A stretch of DNA of 63,582 nt, counting the filler, from Squatina squatina (taxonomy: Eukaryota): the NCBI GenBank assembly GCA_031763465.1. It is 3 parts of 3 records of this genome, joined end to end, with 100 filler letters (N's around TTAATTAATTAA, not from the genome) between each part and the next. Parts side by side here need not be neighbours in the genome. Positions count along the whole stretch, not along the records: positions 1 to 29,383 come from JARFOE010000233.1; 2 more parts are not named here. One strand, 5' to 3'. The translations under genes were made by a program, and so were the position numbers. A model generated the notes under the pieces. It was not told the origin of the DNA. It ran no database searches and saw only the letters and a list, made by a program, of their open reading frames with translations. Positions 4,081-63,582 of this stretch are shown in pieces (positions within the stretch are counted from its first letter, which is position 1; each line of letters begins with the position of its first letter).

Positions 4081-4418
4081 TATTATTAGTACTGTACCAG
4101 TCTAGTGGTCTCTCCCTCTCCTTTGCCATCTCTTTCTTTTGCTGCCTCTAATCTGTTTTCCCTGCCTTCTTCCTTCCTTTATAACTCACTGAAATCTGTC
4201 TGCTTTCTCTTGCTACTCAGTCAAACTTACCTTTTCACTTACACCTTGGTCTAACCTATTGCCCTTCCTTGCCTCTCAGTCTAACCTCTTCATTTGCTGC
4301 CAGTTTAACCTAAGACCTCATTCTGGTCACACAGTCTTATCTATGCCTACTCATCTGTCACATAAACTAAGTTGTCCCTTCCCTTGCCGCCTAATCTAAA
4401 TTGTCCTTCTCTCCTCAG

Positions 4419-4534
4419 GCTGTGACATGTGTGCTGACAATCGGAATGGCGAGTGCCCAATGCATGGGCCACTCCACTCACTGCGTCGCCTCGTGGGTAC
4501 AAGCAGCAGTGCAGCCACAGCTCCACCCGATGTA
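4419..4534 (+). CDS. PRDM6: PRDM6 coding exon, 5' part (zinc-knuckle region before the PR/SET domain), interrupted by transposon sequence
   Basis: Polypyrimidine tract and acceptor ctcctcAG at 4417-4418. Translates (R)[38 protein letters not shown], nearly identical to recalled human PRDM6 [38 protein letters not shown]. Followed by TCA TAA (stop 4538-4540). Not in the ORF track. Confidence 0.93.
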
Positions 4535-5186
4535 TCATAAAGCAAGCAGTTGGCATGCTGTAGATGCACTTCAGATACTTGGAGGAGCCCTTCAGTATGC
4601 ACCAGCCAGGGTCTCCAGAATCATCATTGTTTGCTGCGTGCTGCACAACATAGTGCTGCAGGAGGAGCAAGGCGCAGAGTGTACAGCCTCTTCAGAGGAG
4701 GAGGAGAAGGCAGAAGACGAGAATAAGGAGAATGAACCTAAGGTGGAGATGGCACCAGCAGCGGCACACATTGCTGCTCAGGGTGCCAGGGATGGCCTCA
4801 TCATGGCCAAGTTTACTTAACTTGCTCCAGTGCACCCATATAGCTGCTACATGCTGTACCAAGTTTCCCCCCACTACCAACAACCCAACAATCACCAAGC
4901 CATTCCTTTCACCCAAACCCCATTGCTTGAGGTTAAGTAATGTCTCACCATTCACTCCAAGTGACAAAAATCCACTTCCAAGGTAGCAGGCAAAAATGGA
5001 CAAGACCAGAAAGCAGTGCAAGGAAATACATTTAGCTGTGTCATAAAAATAACAGAAACTTAGCACTAATATTTGTTCATACACCCATGTGCTACCCGTA
5101 TGCATCTACTTCTGTGTCCTTTTTCTTTTCCAAGTGCTTCTACGAGGTGCAGCACCTGTGGCTTCAGCAGAGGCAGAGGCAGAGGC
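4525..5186 (+). mobile_element. PIF/Harbinger DNA transposon fragment (decayed HARBI1-like DDE transposase C-terminus plus downstream sequence)
   Basis: Reads [18 protein letters not shown], then after a frameshift GGALQYAPARVSRIIIVCCVLHNI and an acidic tail. This matches the HARBI1-family motif IEQTIGxLKxRFRCL...GGALQYxP...CCVLHN. Segment 4767-4825 resembles 53010-53068. Confidence 0.85.
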
Positions 5187-5286
5187 NNNNNNNNNNNNNN
5201 NNNNNNNNNNNNNNNNNNNNNNNNNNNNNNNNNNNNNNNNNNNNNNNNNNNNNNNNNNNNNNNNNNNNNNNNNNNNNNNNNNNNNN

Positions 5287-5428
5287 CACTGTGCCAGGCC
5301 TGGGCTATGGCATCTGTGCAGCACAACGCATCCCACAGGGAACCTGGCTTGGACCTTACCAGGGAGTTGCCATCTCCAGGGAAAAGGTGCAGGTGGGAGC
5401 TCTCAGAAACAGTCGTCACCTCTGGGAG
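5287..5428 (+). CDS. PRDM6: PRDM6 coding exon, 3' part (PR/SET domain start); 5' side lost in gap
   Basis: Translates [47 protein letters not shown] (recalled human [27 protein letters not shown]...NTQHLWE). Donor GAG|GTAAGA at 5429. Confidence 0.93.
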
Positions 5429-6211
5429 GTAAGAAGCAACTGGCCTTAAACCACTTGAACATCAATATATTCTGTAGCGCCATGAATTTGTTTGTGATAT
5501 AAATGTTACATAAAGGCTGCAACATGGTGAGCTATGCTATGGGATAAAATGTTACCATTTGCAATAAATTAGTTTGCATGAAATATTTTATTTTTTCAGA
5601 GCTTTGGCATCATGTTCTAATTACAGGAACAATGTTTTAATGAAAATCTATTTTGAACAGAATATTCAAAGAGCAAATATCTTAAAAGTCACATCACACA
5701 ACAGTAAATAAATTGGAAATCACACTGTCCCCAAATATAATGGGACCAATTTACCAAGTAATACAGTACAGTGGAACTCATCTTTTGGAACCTCTTTAGC
5801 TTCTTCAGGGTTTAACATATCAGTCTACTTGTGATATATAAATTATATCACATGGGCCTTCACAATGTATATCTCTACATGAGGCTGAGCAGATAACCCA
5901 TCAGCATTGAGTTCTGGTCATGTAGGAGCGATTCATCACATAGTGTAATTGGCCATGACATTTTCTATTTTTTTATGCTTGAAGTATATTTTGTAGTTTG
6001 AAAATTTTAAATGTTACTTTATCATTTACAGTCATAACTGTCAAAATATGATTCTTATTTTCATTATTATTGTCCACAAATAAATGGGGCATTGTAACTA
6101 AGAAATGTTGATTCTTTTCACATATGTATTTAGTGCTGGTTCTGACATAAACTTGTAATATTAATATAAAGTCATAGAATCATACAGAAAGTTGAATATG
6201 GCACAAATAGT

Positions 6212-16554: not shown

Positions 16555-18974
16555 TTAAGTGGATGTGATGGTGCTGAAATTGTGCAACTTCTTCATGCTG
16601 TATTTATTTTACCCATTGAAGTACTAATTGGAATTTTCACAGGTGAATTTAACGCTGTGGAGCTCCCGAGTAAAACATATGAAACTTGTATACTTTTTGG
16701 AAGCACTTCTTTCCGAAAAATGGGTACGTTGGGCCTCTAAACGCGTCCGACGCTTCAACAAGTTAAAAATGCCCGATGTCGTATCTTACGAACCACTGCT
16801 AGAATGCGTCATAAATTTGCACAGGCTTCCTCAGAACATGAAAGCATCTCATTTGACCATTTTTAGACCGATTGAATACAGACTGTGATTTGGATGTCGA
16901 TTTTTCTATTGTGACTTTTTCCCACAAATTGAAAACAGCAATATCATGCATAAACCACCCAGTAACTTTTAACAATCCACAGTTTGCCTGTGATTAGCAC
17001 GAGAACAATTTACAGCCAGTATTAAATGACTTGCCCTTTATTTTCACTGTTTTCTTTAACTAGTTTTTTTCTTCTTTCAAAAATAGTTGCTGGATCTGTA
17101 ATGGCTAAATCTGCAGTTATATGACCATGTCCTTGCAAGTTTGTTCCTGTTAAAGCCTTACAGTTTAAACGGAAGATGCCTGTTTGAGAGCTTCGTAAAG
17201 AGTATCCCACAGAATTAGATCTAACTTTGATACCTTAGGTAGATACAGATGGGTTATTAAAACTGTTGTCACAAAAGGAATATTGTTTTTATGTGAATAT
17301 ATAATTAAACCATATATCTGGGGAAACTATTTTAATTGCTTTAATTTATATTTTATCACCTGTGCCATGTATGTTCAATTATCAGAAACCACAGCTTTTC
17401 TTTTTACATAGGTGTATTAAACTAATAACTTTGTTCAGTTATTGATTATTTTAGATTTTTACCCATTTAATTGTGATAGTATTAAAAAAGTGAAATGACT
17501 CACTATCATCTTTGTAATGGAACTGCTTGTATCAAAGCGGCAGTATCTCTCTTATCGTTGGCTCACATAATCCAGTTTCAAAACTACCCAAATGTGTGAT
17601 ACGTAATCTCCCTTAAAGCGGCTCATCTATCTTTGGTGGTCATAACAGTTTTTGTTGGCTTTAGCAGCGCTGGACATGACAGCAGCATCAAAGTCTACTG
17701 TAATATTTGGCAGGGATCTTTCACCCACAGTTTGAAACAAATTGCTTTGCATTGATTTGTTTATTTGCAATGAATCTGAGCACATTTTCTGACAAAAGTA
17801 TGATTAGTAAAGAAGTAAGGTTATTCAAAACATTTAACCCACATAACAGATTCTACAGCATTTAGCTAATGGGGACAGTCTTCAACAAGATTTATGTTTA
17901 TTGTCATTTCTGATCAGAAATATGTTTTTGTAGCCCTGCTGTTTGTTTTAGAAGCTATGTCCATCTTTATAGATTTCATTAAATAGTCTTCTACTGTGAA
18001 GTTGAAGAAAAAGGTTTCAATGATTAAATGCCAGAGAACAGTTTTGCACTAACATTTTGAGATGTGGCTTATATGCTCCTCATTGTTTCTTTCTTTAAAA
18101 CTTGCAATAGTGTCACCATCTTGCTTTTCAGATTATATTAAATATATTATTTAATATTAGTAATAGACTTTAATTAAGACAAAACAACTGTGATACATCA
18201 AGAAACAGTTGTGGGCCACCAAAGAAAGTTTTAAGAAGGATGCATTTATCACAAAGCATTCTCCTGGCATCTTTCCAATAAACTGAAAAATAACAAATGT
18301 TATATTTAGCAGCTGGATGCAGAAATACTCCTGTAGAATATAGAGCAATAATATTACTCACAGTAGGGTACTCCAAAAACTCAGCTGCATCAATGGGGTG
18401 GGTCTCAGCCAGTCAAATGCCATTTGGCACCAAAACCTTGCACGATGAATGAACTGTCAGTACTTTTTTTCCAGTGGATAAGTTTGGCCAAGTAAATAGT
18501 AAAAGGTTCAGTGGCTTGTTCTGATCACAGATCATGTCCTGATAGTGTAAAGCTGATCCCACAAACATCTCTCTGATCAGCAAGCATGACATGTCTGAAG
18601 AAGTCCACAGATTGATTGATAGTCCTGCTTCTATTGATAACCCCTATCATCCTTGGAGATAAGTGAGATACTGAAGGTGGGAATGATGCTGTTCAGTCTA
18701 TATAGACATACCCGTGCTGGTAACTGGTTTTACTTGACAAAATCTCAGCACATACTGTCTTTGAACAAATTTATAGTGTCAGATTTTTATATTAATGGGA
18801 CAGTTTGTGGGCTCAATGTACATGTTAGCCTATTTATTTAAAGAAACAGTACTCTGCTTGGGGGAAAAGAACATTGTTTTATTTGATTATCAAATATAGA
18901 TACAATACACAAGATACTGCTAAAAGGATATACTTTATACCTCAGGCACAGTGAGGGCTGCTTCACATATTTTT

Positions 18975-20293
18975 TTGTGTGCTCTGCAGGTGTTACTGTG
19001 ACTTCAGTGCGTGTACTGTGCTTACAGTGTGTTTAATGTGCTCTCCATGTGTTTAATGTGATCACAGTGTGTTTCATGTGCTCAAAGTCTGTTTAATGTG
19101 CTCTCACATTGTGTTTAATGTGCTCTCACAGTGTGCTTAATGTGCTCACCGTGCGGCTAATTTGCTCACAGTGTGTTTCTTGTGCCCTCAGTGTGTGCAA
19201 TGTGCTTACAGTGTTTTTACTTTGCTCTCCATGTGTTTACTGCGATCACAGTGTGTTTAGTGTTTTCACAGTGTATTTAATGTGTTCTGACAGTGTGTTT
19301 CATGTGCTCACAGTGCATCTAATGTGCTCACAGTGCGTTTATTGTGCTCACAATGTGTTTAATTGGCTCTGCATGTGTTTACTGTGTTCACAGTGTGTAT
19401 AATGTGCTCCGCATGTGTTTAATCTGCTCTACATAGGTTTAATCGGCTCACACTGTGTTTAGTTTGGTCACATTGCGCTTACTATGCACTCCCAGTGTGC
19501 TCACTGTGTTCACAGTGTGCTTATTCTGCTCACAGTTTGTTTAATATGCTCACACGGTGTGTTTAATGTGCTTTCCTTTTGTTTAATGAGGAGCCATTGT
19601 CTTCACTGTGCTCACAGTATTTTTTGTGCTCAGAGAGTGTTTAATGTGCTCTGACAGTGTGTTTAGTGTGCTCTCACAGTTTGCTTAGTGTGCTCGCCGT
19701 GTGGCTAATTTGCTCACTCTGTGTTTAATCTGCTCTCAGTGTGTGCAATGTGCTTGAAGTGTGTTTACTGAGCTCTCCATGTGTTTTTTCTGCGATCAGA
19801 GTGTGTTTAATATTTTCACAGTATGTTTAATGTGCCCTGACAGTGTGTTTAATGTGCTCACATTGCGTGTACGGTGCTCACAGTGCGTTTATTGTGCTCA
19901 CAGTGTGTTTAGTTTGGTCACAGTATGCTTAATATGCTCCCCCAGTGTGCTCAATATGTTCACAGTGTGTTTATTCTTCTCACATTTTGTTTAATGTGCA
20001 CTCATAGTGTTTTTAATGTTCTCAGAGTCTGTTTAATGTGCTTTCCTTGTGTGTAATGAGGACCCAGTGTCTTCAATGTGCTCAAAGTGTGTTTAATGTG
20101 CACACAGTGTGTTTACTGTGCTCTCACAGTGTGTTTAGTGTGCTCTCACCATGTGCCTAAGGTGCTCACCCTGTGGCTAATTTGCTCACTGTGTGTTTAA
20201 TATGCTCTCAGTGTGTGGAATGTGCTTGAAGTGTGTTCGCTCTGCTCTCCATGTGTTTTTTCTGCGATCACATTGTGTTTAGTGTTTTCACAG
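18975..20293. repeat. Degenerate ~20-bp minisatellite (cacagtgtgtttaatgtgct)n
   Basis: Directly visible tandem units of 20-22 bp over ~1.3 kb, running into a gap. Confidence 0.95.
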
Positions 20294-22517: not shown

Positions 22518-23475
22518 TGTAATGTTACAGCCCCAGTTACACTTCTGTCCTGTAGTGTTACAGTCCCAGCTGCACCACTATTCTATACTATTACAGCCCC
22601 AGTTACATCGCTGTCCTGTACTGTTACAGCCCCAGTTACACTGCTGTCCTGTAACATTACAGCCCCAGTTACACCGCTGTCCTGTACTGTTACAGCCCCA
22701 GTTACACTGCTGTCCTGTAACATTGCAGCCCCAATTACACCACTGTCCTGTACTTTTGCAGCCCCAGTTACACCAATGTTGCAGCGCCAATTTCACTTCT
22801 GTCTTGTAGTAATACAGCCCCAGTTACACCGCAGCCCTGTAGTGTTACAGCCCCAGTTACACTGCTCTCCTGTAATGCTCCAGCCCCAGTTACTCTGCTG
22901 TCCTGTAATGCTACAGCCCCAGTTACACTGCTGTCCTGTAAGGTTACAGCCCCAGTTACTCTGCTGTCCTGTAATATTACAGCCCCAGTAAGACTGCTGT
23001 CCTGTGATGTTACAGCCCCAGTTGCACAGCTGTGCTGTACTGTTACAGTCTCAGTTACACCACTTTCCTGTAACATTCCAGCCCCTGTAACACCTCTGTC
23101 CTGTAATGTCACAGCCCCAGTTACACTGCTGTACTCTCATGTTACAGACCCAGATACCATGCTGTCCTGCAATGTTACAGCTCCAGTTAAACTACTTTCC
23201 TGTACTGTTGCACCTCCGTTACACTGCTGGCCTGTACTGTTGCAGCCGCAGTTACACTGCTGTACTGTACTGTTACATCTCCAATTACTACGCTGTCCTG
23301 TAATGTTACAGCCACAGTTGCACCACTGACCTGTACTGTTAAAGCTCCAGTTACACTGCTGTCCTGTAATGTTACAGCCCCAGTTACTCCACTGTCCTGT
23401 AATGTTACAGCCCCAGTTGCACTGCTGTCCTGTACTCTTACACACCCAGGTACACCGCTGTCCTGCCTTTTACAG
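22518..23475. repeat. 33-bp minisatellite (tgttacagccccagttacactgctgtcctgtaa)n, about 28 copies
   Basis: Directly visible tandem units, which produce the 11-aa periodic ORFs (VTAPVTLLSCN / LQPQLHCCPVM). Confidence 0.95.
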
Positions 23476-23689
23476 TACCAGACCATACCAGAGTAGGGAT
23501 GAAGTATTCCAACAAAATTTGAAAGCTCTTTGCATTTAGTGTCCAAAATATCAGCATCGCTCTGCCTTCTCTGACTCTTCTCTCCTCTACCCCATCAACT
23601 CCCAGCCTTCTTCCTGACTCAATACTCCACACTCTCAGTGCACTCATCTCGTCCATGAAGCGCCCACAACCTGTCCCTTGATCGCCTCC

Positions 23690-25808: not shown

Positions 25809-25936
25809 ATATATGATCAGGAAGGATCCCTACAACACTTCATTGATGGCAGTGACCCCAGCAAGTCAAACTGGATGAGGTATATCCGATGTGCACGACA
25901 TTGTGGGGAGCAGAACATGACAGTTGTCCAGTACAG
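25809..25936 (+). CDS. PRDM6: PRDM6 coding exon (PR/SET domain)
   Basis: Acceptor tttctcAG, donor CAG|GTAGG. Translates [42 protein letters not shown](R) and continues in phase from the exon ending at 5428. Confidence 0.95.
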
Positions 25937-27505: not shown

Positions 27506-29427
27506 ACCAAAACAACAAAGAGAGGGGTCAGGTGATGTTTTCCTGAAATGCGGGAGGTTGTAAGGATAGGGAATGCCCAATTAGAAACAGCGGGGGATGA
27601 AGACTCAGTGAAAGTTTTTTTTTAAAAAAAAAGGAAAATGGATAAATATTTGAAAAATAAAAATTTAAACGGGGAAATGGGGAATGGGCAGAAGAATGGG
27701 ACTTATTGGATAGCTCTCTCACTGAGTCGGCACAAGCTCAGTGGGCTGAAAGGCTTCATTCTGTGATTAAAATTCTATGAATCTATTATAAAAGGGACAA
27801 ATTGAGTTTGGTAAAGCTTCTGGCATTAACAATAACACCAAAGCGGTGAAACACTGCTACCAGTGGAAAATGCATGGGACATCAAAAAGAACATTAGCAC
27901 GAATAAACCTAAAAATAGGGATATTAATGCTCTGAAAAGCATGGTAGGAAAAATAGCTGCCTGTAATCATTCACAGGTCTCCATTGTGCTATCCTATGAC
28001 AGAAGGATTGCTGGGACTTCCACCTTGCACAAGTGTTTCTCAGACAGCATTCCAACTACTCTATTGTGGGAGTAGAATTTGTTAGTGCAGAGAACAAAGA
28101 AATATAGTGAGTGATTGCTTAAGTAGGTTTTATATATCTCCCCTCTCCAACCATTGCCACATAATAGACACAGTCATAGGGTGCACAAAGGGATTTATTT
28201 TTATCTACTACCACAGGCACATTTTTAGAGACGAGTTAATGACATTAGGTCACATCTGCAATTTAGGATCAGTAATGCATGAGATGGAATTCTGCAAAGC
28301 TCTCCCATTTAAACAGAACCTTGCTAGTGGTGAGCGCAGGTTATATAATTGGGGTTATAGTTTTAGAACTCTATCTCTGACCTATGCTTAGGTCTAGCAG
28401 AGCTTCACAAAATTGCTCCCATGGTGTTAAACATAATGGTCTTGCTTCAGTGGAAATGGTTGTGCAAAGATTTGCTTGTCAGTAGTCTTCACATTAGCAG
28501 ATTTCTGAGGGATAATTTCACAAGGTTCTGCTATGGATCTGGAGTTTTGGCAGCAACGAGCCCTGGTTGGATAATCAGAGCAATAGTGTTAGAGCTCATT
28601 GTTGCTCCACATTCATGTCAGCAACAGAGTCTCATGAAATTACCCCTTGATATATTTAAAATTTATATAGTAAGAAAAGTTTGAGTGACTTAATACTCCA
28701 ACATAGTTCCAGGCTCTGTGATTGAAAGGTACAGTACTAGAAATGCAGATCCAAGGCCACTTTGACATTTATACAGTCATGATTGAGAAGTATTGATCTC
28801 CTGAACCAAAAAGACTCCCCTGAAATATCTTCAAACCTTAAGTCATTGGCATGCCCAGGAAAATGACAAGCTCCCTGATCTGGCCATTTTTTAAAAGTTT
28901 TGATCTGACACAGAGTGATGCTGAGACAATCGTTAATATTACAGTAATAAAGGTACTCAAATAATAGCAGTTGTTTTATAGTTGCAATATTATCCTTAAA
29001 CTACTGAAATAAATACCTGAAAAACTATTTTAAATAAAAATTAAAACAATTCTTCCGCATTCCCTATTCTGCTTTATTATTTTAACTTCATTTCATTTAT
29101 TTCCCTTTTTTCTGAAAGCAAGCTATAAAACACTTTTCAACCTATTTCCTTCTGGTTTCCCAGATCCACTTTGGAGCTGGGGCAACCTCTGAAAAATTTG
29201 GGATTTAATTGTCTGAAAATGAAGATGGAACATTAGCTCATGAACAAAAACAAGAAAGAAGTTATATTTTTATAACTATAAGCATACCCAGCGATGATGA
29301 AAAAACAGTAATATAGTTCCAAGTCAGGATGTGTGTGATTTGGAGGGGAACTTGGAAGTGGTGGTGATGCCATGTGTCTACTGNNNNNNNNNNNNNNNNN
29401 NNNNNNNNNNNNNNNNNNNNNNNNNNN

Positions 29428-29439
29428 TTAATTAATTAA
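29428..29439. other. Artificial contig-joining linker TTAATTAATTAA inside a gap
   Basis: 12-mer with stops in all six frames, flanked by 44 N on each side (100 bp total). Identical arrangement at 49749-49760. Confidence 0.95.
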
Positions 29440-30243
29440 NNNNNNNNNNNNNNNNNNNNNNNNNNNNNNNNNNNNNNNNNNNNTAAGCACATTTTCCAGC
29501 AAGCCACTCTCAATCACCTTCCCGCTGCCCTCGACAACCCTAAACTTAATGTTATCTCACCCAGAGCAAATTAATGAGGCTACAGTTCCATCTTCCCGTG
29601 GGAAGCAATGTCCCTGTGACCTCACAGATTGCATCTGGACTACTTTGATAATGAGTTGCTTGCTCCTTGAAGCTCGGACACTGTAAACAATGTCAGCACT
29701 TTGTGCTGGAGAGGAGGAGTCCTGACTGACATTGCATCAGTAATGGAGTAAACATTTGCTACCTATAACGCAAGTTGATCTTGCATTAAAAAAAACACTA
29801 ATGGAAGGCAGAAGCTCAGTGCTTCGAAACATTTATGCTGAATCCATTGTTGCAGGATTTCAGACAGCAAATATGTACAGCAGGAACCCTGAGGAGTATG
29901 GTCCTTGGCCAGCCCATCCATTATCTGTCCCTCAAAAAAACCCAGCTCTATATGAATGTTAACAACCAAATACTAGCAGTTTAGGTAACGAATTTACTTC
30001 AAAAAATATACATTTTGACAGAAAAATTGGACTTAGATGTTTAATAATGCAGATGCATTATCAACAGTGATGAACAGTGATGCTTTCCTCAAAAGAGAAC
30101 ATTTTTTCAGGGCTACATTTGGAATGCTGAGGATCTTCATGTGTGGCTTTCAAACAAAATTGACACCATGTTAGTTGCATCTTTATAACATTTTTGATCT
30201 TTTAACACAATTGAGATTCAAGGACAAGTATGGTGCCCTTTTA

Positions 30244-35669: not shown

Positions 35670-37908
<2,239 letters not shown>

Positions 37909-49704: not shown

Positions 49705-49748
49705 NNNNNNNNNNNNNNNNNNNNNNNNNNNNNNNNNNNNNNNNNNNN

Positions 49749-49760
49749 TTAATTAATTAA
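49749..49760. other. Artificial contig-joining linker TTAATTAATTAA inside a gap
   Basis: 44 N + 12-mer + 44 N, identical to 29428-29439. Confidence 0.95.
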
Positions 49761-49898
49761 NNNNNNNNNNNNNNNNNNNNNNNNNNNNNNNNNNNNNNNN
49801 NNNNACTGTAAATAGTAACTCTTCATAAAATGTAACCTCTGTACAATGGGCTTATGTCAACAGCTATGCATCAGAAGCACCCACTTTAACTTCCATAC

Positions 49899-52689: not shown

Positions 52690-53325
52690 TAAGTTGGCAG
52701 CTTCAAATGTAACGTAAAAGCACCCACTTTACAGTGATGTCTTCCCTCGGCCACAAGCTCTTCCTCACTGCATTTCCACAACAGATTCACCATGCTGCAA
52801 GTTTTTACACAAGTTTTCATCCAGTCTGACATCATTACCTCTCTCACCATTGAAAGGTCGCTTGAAACTCTCTCATCTTGGTCCTCAGAATCCCACTACG
52901 ATCAGCCCCAACAGCAGCAGCACTGGGCACACCAGCAGCACCAACGACAACACCAACCTTCTTCGCAATCAACTGATGCTGCACAGGACAGAGGGCATCA
53001 GCACCCAACCACATTGCTGCCCAGGAGGCTAGGGATGGTCTCACCATGGCCACATTTACTTCACTTGATGCATTACATCCTGGCTGCCACATGATGAGCC
53101 AGGTTGGCACCACCCCACTCCAAAACCATAAAACATCCCTACAATGCCCAAGCCATTCCTCTCACACTCATGACCATTGCGGGGGGTGGGTACCAATATG
53201 TCTCACCATTTACTGCAACTCACTAAGCCATATCCAAAGGTGCACACAAATCTGTCCAAGAACACAAAACGTTGAAAATAAAGGTTTCAGGGCGCCCAAT
53301 TCGATTGCCCTAAGTTTCGGGCGCT
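52690..53325 (+). mobile_element. Harbinger-derived non-autonomous element
   Basis: 53010-53068 (cacattgctgcccaggaggctagggatggtctcaccatggccacatttact) is homologous to the end of the Harbinger transposase at 4767-4825. Confidence 0.6.
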
Positions 53326-53890: not shown

Positions 53891-54165
53891 NNNNNNNNNN
53901 NNNNNNNNNNNNNNNNNNNNNNNNNNNNNNNNNNNNNNNNNNNNNNNNNNNNNNNNNNNNNNNNNNNNNNNNNNNNNNNNNNNNNNNNNNAAACTTGCCA
54001 AACCCCACTAACCAGAGAATGCAGTGTATTTTGCAAGAAGGATCAAGAAATATAATAGACACTGCTAAAGAAAAATCAGAACTGTAAGATTAGTGACTTG
54101 AATACCTCACTATGTGTGAAATGCAGAACAGCATAATAATTTAAAGACATAAAAAGAAATCTTAC

Positions 54166-54395
54166 CTTGACAACGAGGTCTGAACCCAGGGCTTCCTTGG
54201 CCCCCATAATTTTGGCACCAACTTCCCTGTATTGGTCATCGGAGAATTTAGCTGCTTCACCAGCACCAGATTCTACCACCACATTAAATCCTTGTTTCAC
54301 CAGAGCTTGAGCACCAGCTGGAGACAAAGCCACTCGCTTCTCATTCTGGAAGATCTCTTTAGGGACTCCTACTGTCAGTTGTTTATAAGGAATTC
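54166..54395 (-). CDS. NNT: NNT early coding exon (start of domain I)
   Basis: AG/GT-bounded; (G)[76 protein letters not shown]. Confidence 0.95.
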
Positions 54396-62193: not shown

Positions 62194-63124
62194 CTCGTCT
62201 GATTTACACTTGCACCAAACAATCGGCCCAGCCACATTCCTCGTTTGCCTTCAGTATGCTCCAGGTTTGACTTCTTTTCTGGGTGTGCAGCATGATCATG
62301 TGAAGCCATGCTTTCATTCACCTTGCTGTGCTTAAGTTCATGTAGTACAGACTCTGGAGGACTCCCCATCCAATAAGGTTTGGCTTCATTTTTAGAATAC
62401 TCAGGCTGAGTCGTCTTTAAGAGTTCCTTAGTGGCTGCTGCCTCCCCATTTGACTCAATCTGACTGGACACCATGTTACAATTGTCCAAATTTTGTGATT
62501 CAGATATAGACACATTCTCTGCTCCTTCTGTAACGCCCTCTCGAAGTGACTCTTTCTCCATACCTATACTTAATCGTAGAGGTACAGCAGCTGTACTTTG
62601 CTTCTTTCTCTTCTCCCATTTTACAAACTTTGATTCTTCTGAAGATCCTTCAATGTATACCTGTGAGCTCTGCATGAGTTGGTACCACCACCCTGCTTGC
62701 TTGTCCTTTTTCATCTCCGTTACTTGCTCCTTTCTTGCTCTCTCTCCACTCTCCAAATCGTCATCTGTTTTATCCACTAATACTGCATCTCTTGCTGTTG
62801 CACCCTTGCGTGCAGCTGCACTTTGTGTGATTCTTTCTGATTTGTCCTCCCTGTTCTGTTCAGGTCCCAAACTGCCATTGGTTCTCATCAGCTGGAAAGT
62901 GGAGTGCACGGACTGCAAGAGGTCCTGCTTGACTTTGAGCTGTTCCTTCTTCTTTTGTTGATCTTTATTCATTTGAATAACATGGTGTTCAAACATCAAA
63001 TCTAGATCAAAGGGTAGCAACGAAAGAGGCTGCAGTAATAGAAGGAGCTCCTCAAACAGTGGTTGGCAAACACTGTGCGACAGTGCTAGAAAACCAGTGG
63101 GCAGATAGTGAACTCCAATAATAT
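62194..63124 (-). CDS. RUSC2: RUSC2 large internal exon (end of RUN domain and linker), 3' end lost in gap
   Basis: Acceptor ttctctttggttAG; (D)IIGVHYLPTGFLALSHSVCQPLFEELLLLLQPLSLLPFDLDLMFEHH...WWYQLMQSSQVYIEG...YWMGSPPESVL...WLGRLFGA. Confidence 0.9.
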
Positions 63125-63582
63125 CTAACCAAAGAGAAGAAACAATTAGTGTTATAGTTTAGTTATTCAAATATAAGCACTCCACAGGAGGGGGAAAATG
63201 CTGCTACACAATTCTGCACACAGGCAACTATAAGCCAAAATTCAACAATACCGCCAGTTTCTCTGAGGCTTGAATAATACATAAGTGTATACAAAACCAG
63301 ATTTATTCATTACAGGGTACGAACATGGACTGCTAGTTTGACATATAGATCCCTTCCCCAATGAAGAACCGAGATGATAAATCTGGTAACTTCACACATT
63401 TTGAGTCCAAGGTGATTATGGTTTCAGCTGGAATTCAAATCTATGGCTCCAAAAGGTGATGAATATTTTACTAAATACTTATTAAAACTACATCAAAATG
63501 TTATGAGAGAACTATAGTATGCCAATTCAAGTATAATCAGATCTTATTACCTTCTTGAATGAATAGTATCTTGCTATTCATG

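Follow-up and report, generated by a model that had tools for sequence, protein, structure and literature searches.

The window analysed here, a stretch of 63,582 nt from a draft genome of Squatina squatina (GCA_031763465.1), carries pieces of PRDM6, a heart-and-vessel gene, one of whose exons runs as assembled into a fragment of a Harbinger transposase. This exon, which we take to correspond to exon 3 of mouse Prdm6, opens at 4419 on the plus strand behind a polypyrimidine tract and AG acceptor recognised from sequence (4399-4418, with the AG at 4417-4418), where the first-pass annotation of this DNA had placed it. Its 5' part (4419-4533, plus strand) encodes the zinc knuckle and linker, corresponding to residues 162-199 of PRDM6 from the white shark Carcharodon carcharias (P0006), which is the reference for residue numbers in this study. 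Its 3' part (5287-5428, plus strand) encodes the beginning of the PR/SET region, residues 216-262, and is closed by the donor GAG/GTAAGA at 5429. Both parts are delimited by identity to P0006 and by contigs from related species. The next PRDM6 exon is intact (25809-25936, plus strand), with an AG acceptor and the donor CAG/GTAGGA, and is identified by its identity to residues 263-304. The gene is represented in the window by pieces spanning residues 162-304; it contains neither the exons upstream of residue 162 nor those downstream of residue 305, which include the exons for the C-terminal C2H2 zinc fingers.

The translation of 4421-4531 is identical to residues 162-198 of P0006 at 37 of 37 positions, that of 5288-5428 to residues 216-262 at 47 of 47, and that of 25809-25936 to residues 263-304 at 42 of 42, so that all 126 residues of the three pieces agree with the white shark protein; 121 of the 126 are identical in Mobula hypostoma (P0019) and 120 in Callorhinchus milii (P0096). 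A protein search with the 5' piece returned 242 matches, the top named one being Carcharodon carcharias PRDM6 at 100%, which settles the name. The Pfam model for the PR zinc knuckle (PF18445) scored under its cut-off on this 39-residue piece (E 0.15), and the assignment to PRDM6 therefore rests on the identity to P0006. The 46-residue 3' piece was matched by none of 11 candidates in the protein search and by nothing in the PDB, and its best Atlas match (0.82) was unnamed. The splice sites of the PRDM6 pieces are intact. No neutral decay is seen in the 126 codons relative to P0006, and zero changes in about 293 nonsynonymous sites limit the neutral decay of PRDM6 to about 1% or less (95%). Old pseudogenisation of PRDM6, against which its conservation had already been argued in the first-pass annotation, is rejected in view of the unchanged protein and the intact splice sites.

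The PRDM6 reading frame of the 5' part ends at an in-frame TAA (4538-4540), as had been reported, shortly after the sequence has changed into that of the transposase. The segment at 4534-4820 (plus strand) is the decayed 3' end of a Harbinger transposase, recognised by its matches to HARBI1 proteins and ending in a stop codon at 4818-4820. Across 4524-4817 the best match to shark proteins annotated as "putative nuclease HARBI1" has an E value of 2.8e-20; three of the four protein matches carry that name, and the fourth is a long, differently named protein that contains a similar segment. The Pfam domain DDE_Tnp_4 was matched weakly on this piece (E 0.01), below the curated cut-off. The remainder of the same high-copy repeat (4821-5186), recognised by depth and by a second copy, finishes with (GCAGAG)3.3 where the contig stops, and is followed by a spacer of 100 N (5187-5286), the N count of which does not give the true size of the gap. 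On the minus strand the region 4821-5186 is possibly the tail of a Myb-like frame, judging from a translation of 26 residues only before the gap at 5187. A second, more diverged Harbinger-related piece lies at 52862-53268 (plus strand), where 52990-53268 is 69% identical to 4747-5012.

Several features show that this Harbinger piece is an old, broken and very abundant repeat. The transposase contains a TAG at 4561-4563, has lost 10 nt and with them its frame near 4580, where in the runs of four relatives 166-236 records each have ten extra letters and before which there are loose alignment ends, and lacks six codons near 4655 that are present in all four protein matches. Between 4731 and 5100 there are at least 14 places where at least 90% of the repeat depth in one of these runs (X4) differs (at least 3.8%), as counted in 40 of 236 rows. 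The stop, the two deletions and this divergence indicate that the repeat predates whatever loss of function PRDM6 might have suffered. Summed depth over 4578-5186 in the four relatives ranges from about 700 to 350,000, against 5-9 in the flanks, a figure that is not a copy number; within 4821-5186 it runs from thousands to hundreds of thousands. Compared with known PIF/Harbinger elements (P0141-P0143, DDE_Tnp_4), the C-terminal segment after the frameshift is 61-71% identical, and summed depth is very high in each of the four relatives; the piece in the window, however, is internal only: it lacks a terminal inverted repeat (TIR) and the greater part of the DDE domain, and carries the stop, frameshift and six-codon loss described above. 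Scans of metagenomes for Harbinger DNA gave 0 matches, and 40 pattern hits of which none was confirmed.

The position at which PRDM6 gives way to the repeat had been placed at about 4525-4534. The change itself stands, but the tract that can be read both as PRDM6 and as transposase extends over about 4513-4533 (plus strand), roughly twice as long, and base 4534 does not belong to it, since the PRDM6 alignments of the relatives stop at 4533 in four of four runs. Over these approximately 21 nt the PRDM6 residues are identical to P0006 and lie within the relatives' PRDM6 alignments, and the transposase frame, inside which the junction falls, reads SHSSTRC, compared with SHMSTRC in P0141 and P0143 (6/7) and SHISTRY in P0142 (5/7). 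No other of the 113,323 positions read in six frames across the window gives 6/7, a count that gauges rarity and is not a formal P value, the site having been chosen because it adjoins the repeat; the seven residues immediately upstream show 0/7 matches to the transposase. Depth supports the same extension: in the bin 4470-4523 it is above the single-copy level in all four runs (21.8 v 9.0, 13.7 v 7.3, 8.6 v 7.7 and 7.3 v 5.5), which means that the alignments of some repeat contigs extend leftward past 4524. Harbinger family DNA at 4513-4533 was seen through proteins and depth only, and the shared tract is probably imperfect; if the family has a Met codon where the window has Ser, the longest exact match would be 12 nt or less (4522-4533).

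Relative to the PRDM6 proteins of cartilaginous fishes (P0006, P0019 and P0096), the exon ends in the window agree with the relatives' contigs, while the window lacks 48 nt (residues 200-215) and has 653 nt of repeat and 100 N in their place. PRDM6 had been reported to resume after the gap at 5287 with about 16 codons missing. The resumption holds, with 47 identical residues and relatives aligning from base 5287 in four of four runs, and the missing peptide is PCGLRELPREVCLCTS (P0006 200-215), not the PEWLRD-like peptide proposed previously. PCGLR is found in three cartilaginous-fish proteins, and PEWL or PDWL in the six bony-vertebrate proteins shown. Since 16 residues of P0006 are absent, 48 nt are predicted between 4533 and 5287, and this is the exact distance in the relatives: in each of four runs 4533 and 5287 lie on a single contig, separated by 48 letters, equal to 16 codons, and this contig contains no transposon. 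The comparison with related species suggested in the first-pass annotation thus finds the exon whole in all four.

The four runs, from four organisms and four studies, were taken from 21 listed runs, of which 18 hold 0.05-0.13 of the window's words and none holds half. Their joining contigs measure 16,270, 16,821, 10,896 and 3,693 nt, have a single-copy depth of 5-9, and all cover 4206-4533 and 5287 to about 5800. Of their aligned letters, 21-25 of 328 and 31-39 of approximately 514 depart from the window, an identity of about 92-94% in the PRDM6 flanks, which marks the aligned runs as relatives and not conspecifics. At least two differences fall in PRDM6 coding sequence among the 40 rows listed (4468 and 5407), and both are synonymous by codon reading. 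None of the four relatives has an intron at the junction site. Because all four join 4533 to 5287 with 48 letters, the ancestral exon can be read from these alignments as 305 nt long and uninterrupted.

The missing peptide was not found elsewhere in the window, where the best match to it covers 5 of 6 residues (E 0.15). That match lies on the minus strand at 5326-5343, where VPCGMR resembles the VPCGLR that opens the missing stretch. The true exon may therefore contain an imperfect inverted repeat adjoining the hole, which could favour dropout, or perhaps the resemblance is due to chance. Among 133 homologs fetched with the knuckle motif, 119 cross the missing stretch, 13 are scored as not continuing after LPRE and one is without it. 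Eleven unnamed homologs diverge directly past LPRE(V) (P0021, P0027, P0036, P0059, P0069, P0090, P0091, P0125, P0127, P0129 and P0130), which suggests, from protein alignment, that some lineages, probably of bony fishes, have an intron within the same PRDM6 exon approximately 10 codons beyond the junction studied here.

These observations confirm what had been described at the locus, but a genuinely broken gene is unlikely to underlie it. The junction of PRDM6 with Harbinger is very probably a false join in the assembly, made across shared sequence at a hole in coverage, and an artefact had been the leading explanation from the start; it is now supported by the four relatives, the 126 unchanged codons, the decayed repeat, the lack of an element end and the patchwork nature of the draft. 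On the simplest account a single accident is enough: the coverage of a short-read draft would have failed over 48 nt inside a PRDM6 exon that is itself intact. The true continuation of the 5' half would have been uncovered, or trimmed as a dead end, leaving as the sole path the one into the Harbinger repeat, which might have been taken through a shared short k-mer, a gap closure on a short overlap or a template-switch read. The 3' half would have begun as a separate contig, later set behind the 100-N spacer by a homology-guided step, and the animal itself would have a normal exon of 305 nt (115 + 48 + 142). Such an accident would explain why the 3' contig opens mid-exon at 5287 in unique sequence with zero repeat bases, yet the 5' contig retains an untrimmed overhang of 653 nt of repeat.

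Two features to be expected of a chimera are found: sequence shared by the two partners at the junction, in the form of the tract at 4513-4533 with its extra depth, and an uninterrupted locus in related genomes in four of four runs, where the 48 letters of the join are the number predicted from P0006. Chimeric contigs from de Bruijn graphs are described for a transcriptome assembler in PMC6736328: where branches have been trimmed or are missing, condensation across a sequence held in common can be chimeric, and tips are glued on overlaps of 8 bp. As at PRDM6, two unrelated sequences with a short common tract and a missing true branch end up in one contig; the assembly there is of a transcriptome, however, and the exact step that produced the PRDM6 junction is our inference. 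Other observations weigh against a chimera. The junction stands within a contig, away from the gap, and the 92-94% flank identity of the relatives leaves room for a change private to the lineage or the animal. If the family does have Met in the shared tract, the exact match of 12 nt or less is also below the usual assembly k-mers, and the join would depend on one particular diverged copy, on a step using short overlaps or on a chimeric read; no sign of any of these was observed. If the junction is a chimera, its significance is only that of a warning that this draft can show false gene disruptions within contigs, and for that reason calls of gene loss or insertion made from it need read support. 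A literature search for loss of PRDM6 in a shark found no paper, which does not imply that none is in print.

Of the explanations in which the junction is real, a recent lesion in this animal or its population is the least unlikely, though it is improbable. Homeologous recombination or microhomology-mediated repair would have exchanged the 48 nt for old Harbinger DNA, probably on one allele, producing a null allele that stops at 4538. Such repair would use a partly identical tract of the kind present at the junction, about 21 nt long, and if the event is recent no decay of the protein is needed. Deletion of exon 3 of mouse Prdm6 is embryonic lethal when homozygous and heterozygous knockout mice are viable (PMC3836774), so lethality is no bar to a lesion of one allele. 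A graph containing two alleles could also begin the 3' contig exactly at 5287; with a normal allele present, however, the assembler would more likely have stopped at the branch or taken the normal path. Were the lesion homozygous, the 3' contig should open with repeat bases, which it does not, and coverage holes in coding DNA are found elsewhere in the window. If it were a true lesion of one allele, it would be a natural PRDM6 null arising from ectopic repair.

An older gain of an intron is rather harder still to credit. It would require that the repeat was captured at a break, that the GT at 4532 serves as donor, and that the acceptor and 48 exon bases lie in the gap, the repeat meanwhile decaying where it stands; a shark lineage would then have gained a spliceosomal intron in a deeply conserved PRDM6 exon by homology-guided capture of an internal piece of Harbinger DNA, with a GT of the exon itself as donor and no effect on the protein, a proposal to which we give little credence. 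Among models of a real event, it alone accommodates decay of the repeat together with a protein that has not changed. The GT falls at a codon boundary, and the 11 homologs that diverge past LPRE(V) suggest that an intron was gained in this exon in some lineages, probably of bony fishes, though at a different site. Scored against the donor consensus MAG/GTRAGT, the candidate GAT/GTATCA at 4532 matches 4 of 9 positions, lacking the G at -1 and the G at +5, and is as weak as had been judged earlier: 2344 of the 3238 GT sites in the window score equally well or better, 4/9 being the commonest score. Both of the real donors score 7/9, a level reached by 118 of the 3238. New introns have been proposed to arise through break repair (PMC3020277), but intron gain is described as rare in vertebrates outside teleosts (PMC12357937), the four relatives have no intron at the site, and a second accident would be required to lose the acceptor and the 48 nt. 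Were the gain true, cartilaginous fishes would offer a rare case that can be dated and in which the donor sequence is still recognisable.

An ordinary transposon insertion that knocked out PRDM6 long ago has the transposase and stop inside the exon as assembled and the empty site in the relatives in its favour, but it is scarcely credible, because the junction lies in the middle of the transposase with no TIR of 25-50 bp and the 126 codons show no protein change where the repeat has decayed by at least 3.8%. Harbinger elements usually have TIRs of that length and 3-bp target duplications (PMC9179366). A duplication, the absence of which had been noted previously, would have to be judged at the second junction as well, and this would fall within the gap (5187-5286). 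The absence of a TIR at the junction, noted previously, is borne out by a search of 4380-5460, where there is no inverted repeat of 25 nt or more; 14 pairs were found there, the longest measuring 20 nt at 75%. Insertion by transposition is rejected on the lack of an element end at the junction and on the unchanged protein, and an old knockout by this route is ruled out because the bound on PRDM6 decay (about 1%) is below the repeat's own decay.

The assembly chimera favoured here stands in a fragmentary draft. There are 43 N runs in the window, 31 of them exactly 100 long, and the median distance from one 100-N run to the next is 1.4 kb. A synthetic-looking spacer of 44 N, a 12-nt self-complementary motif and another 44 N closes the PRDM6 block at 29384-29483 and is repeated at 49705-49804; the motif provides stops in all six frames. 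These 100-base spacers were likely put in by a script as joints; they divide the window into three blocks, across which gene order is untrustworthy. The blocks hold pieces of four genes, including the two PRDM6 exons. Breaks in unique coding DNA are not rare here, as frames at 37908 and 62194 also meet gaps.

The first of these, at 35853-37908 (plus strand), is a single extended frame of a membrane protein, combining LRR, Ig and FN3 domains with one hydrophobic stretch, and it meets the gap at 37908; its best PDB match is LINGO1-type, and it is presumably LRRN1-like. The second, at 62194-63158 (minus strand), begins with a match to the end of the RUN domain of Iporin/RUSC2 (E 3.1e-15) and meets the gap at 62194; 62194-63155 had no usable match in the Atlas. 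A single exon at 54165-54384 (minus strand), the ends of which were judged by eye, encodes an AlaDh/PNT N-terminal domain (E 3.5e-17) and, on the basis of this domain, likely belongs to an NAD(P) transhydrogenase. Two degenerate tandem arrays are present at 18962-20293 and 22518-23482.
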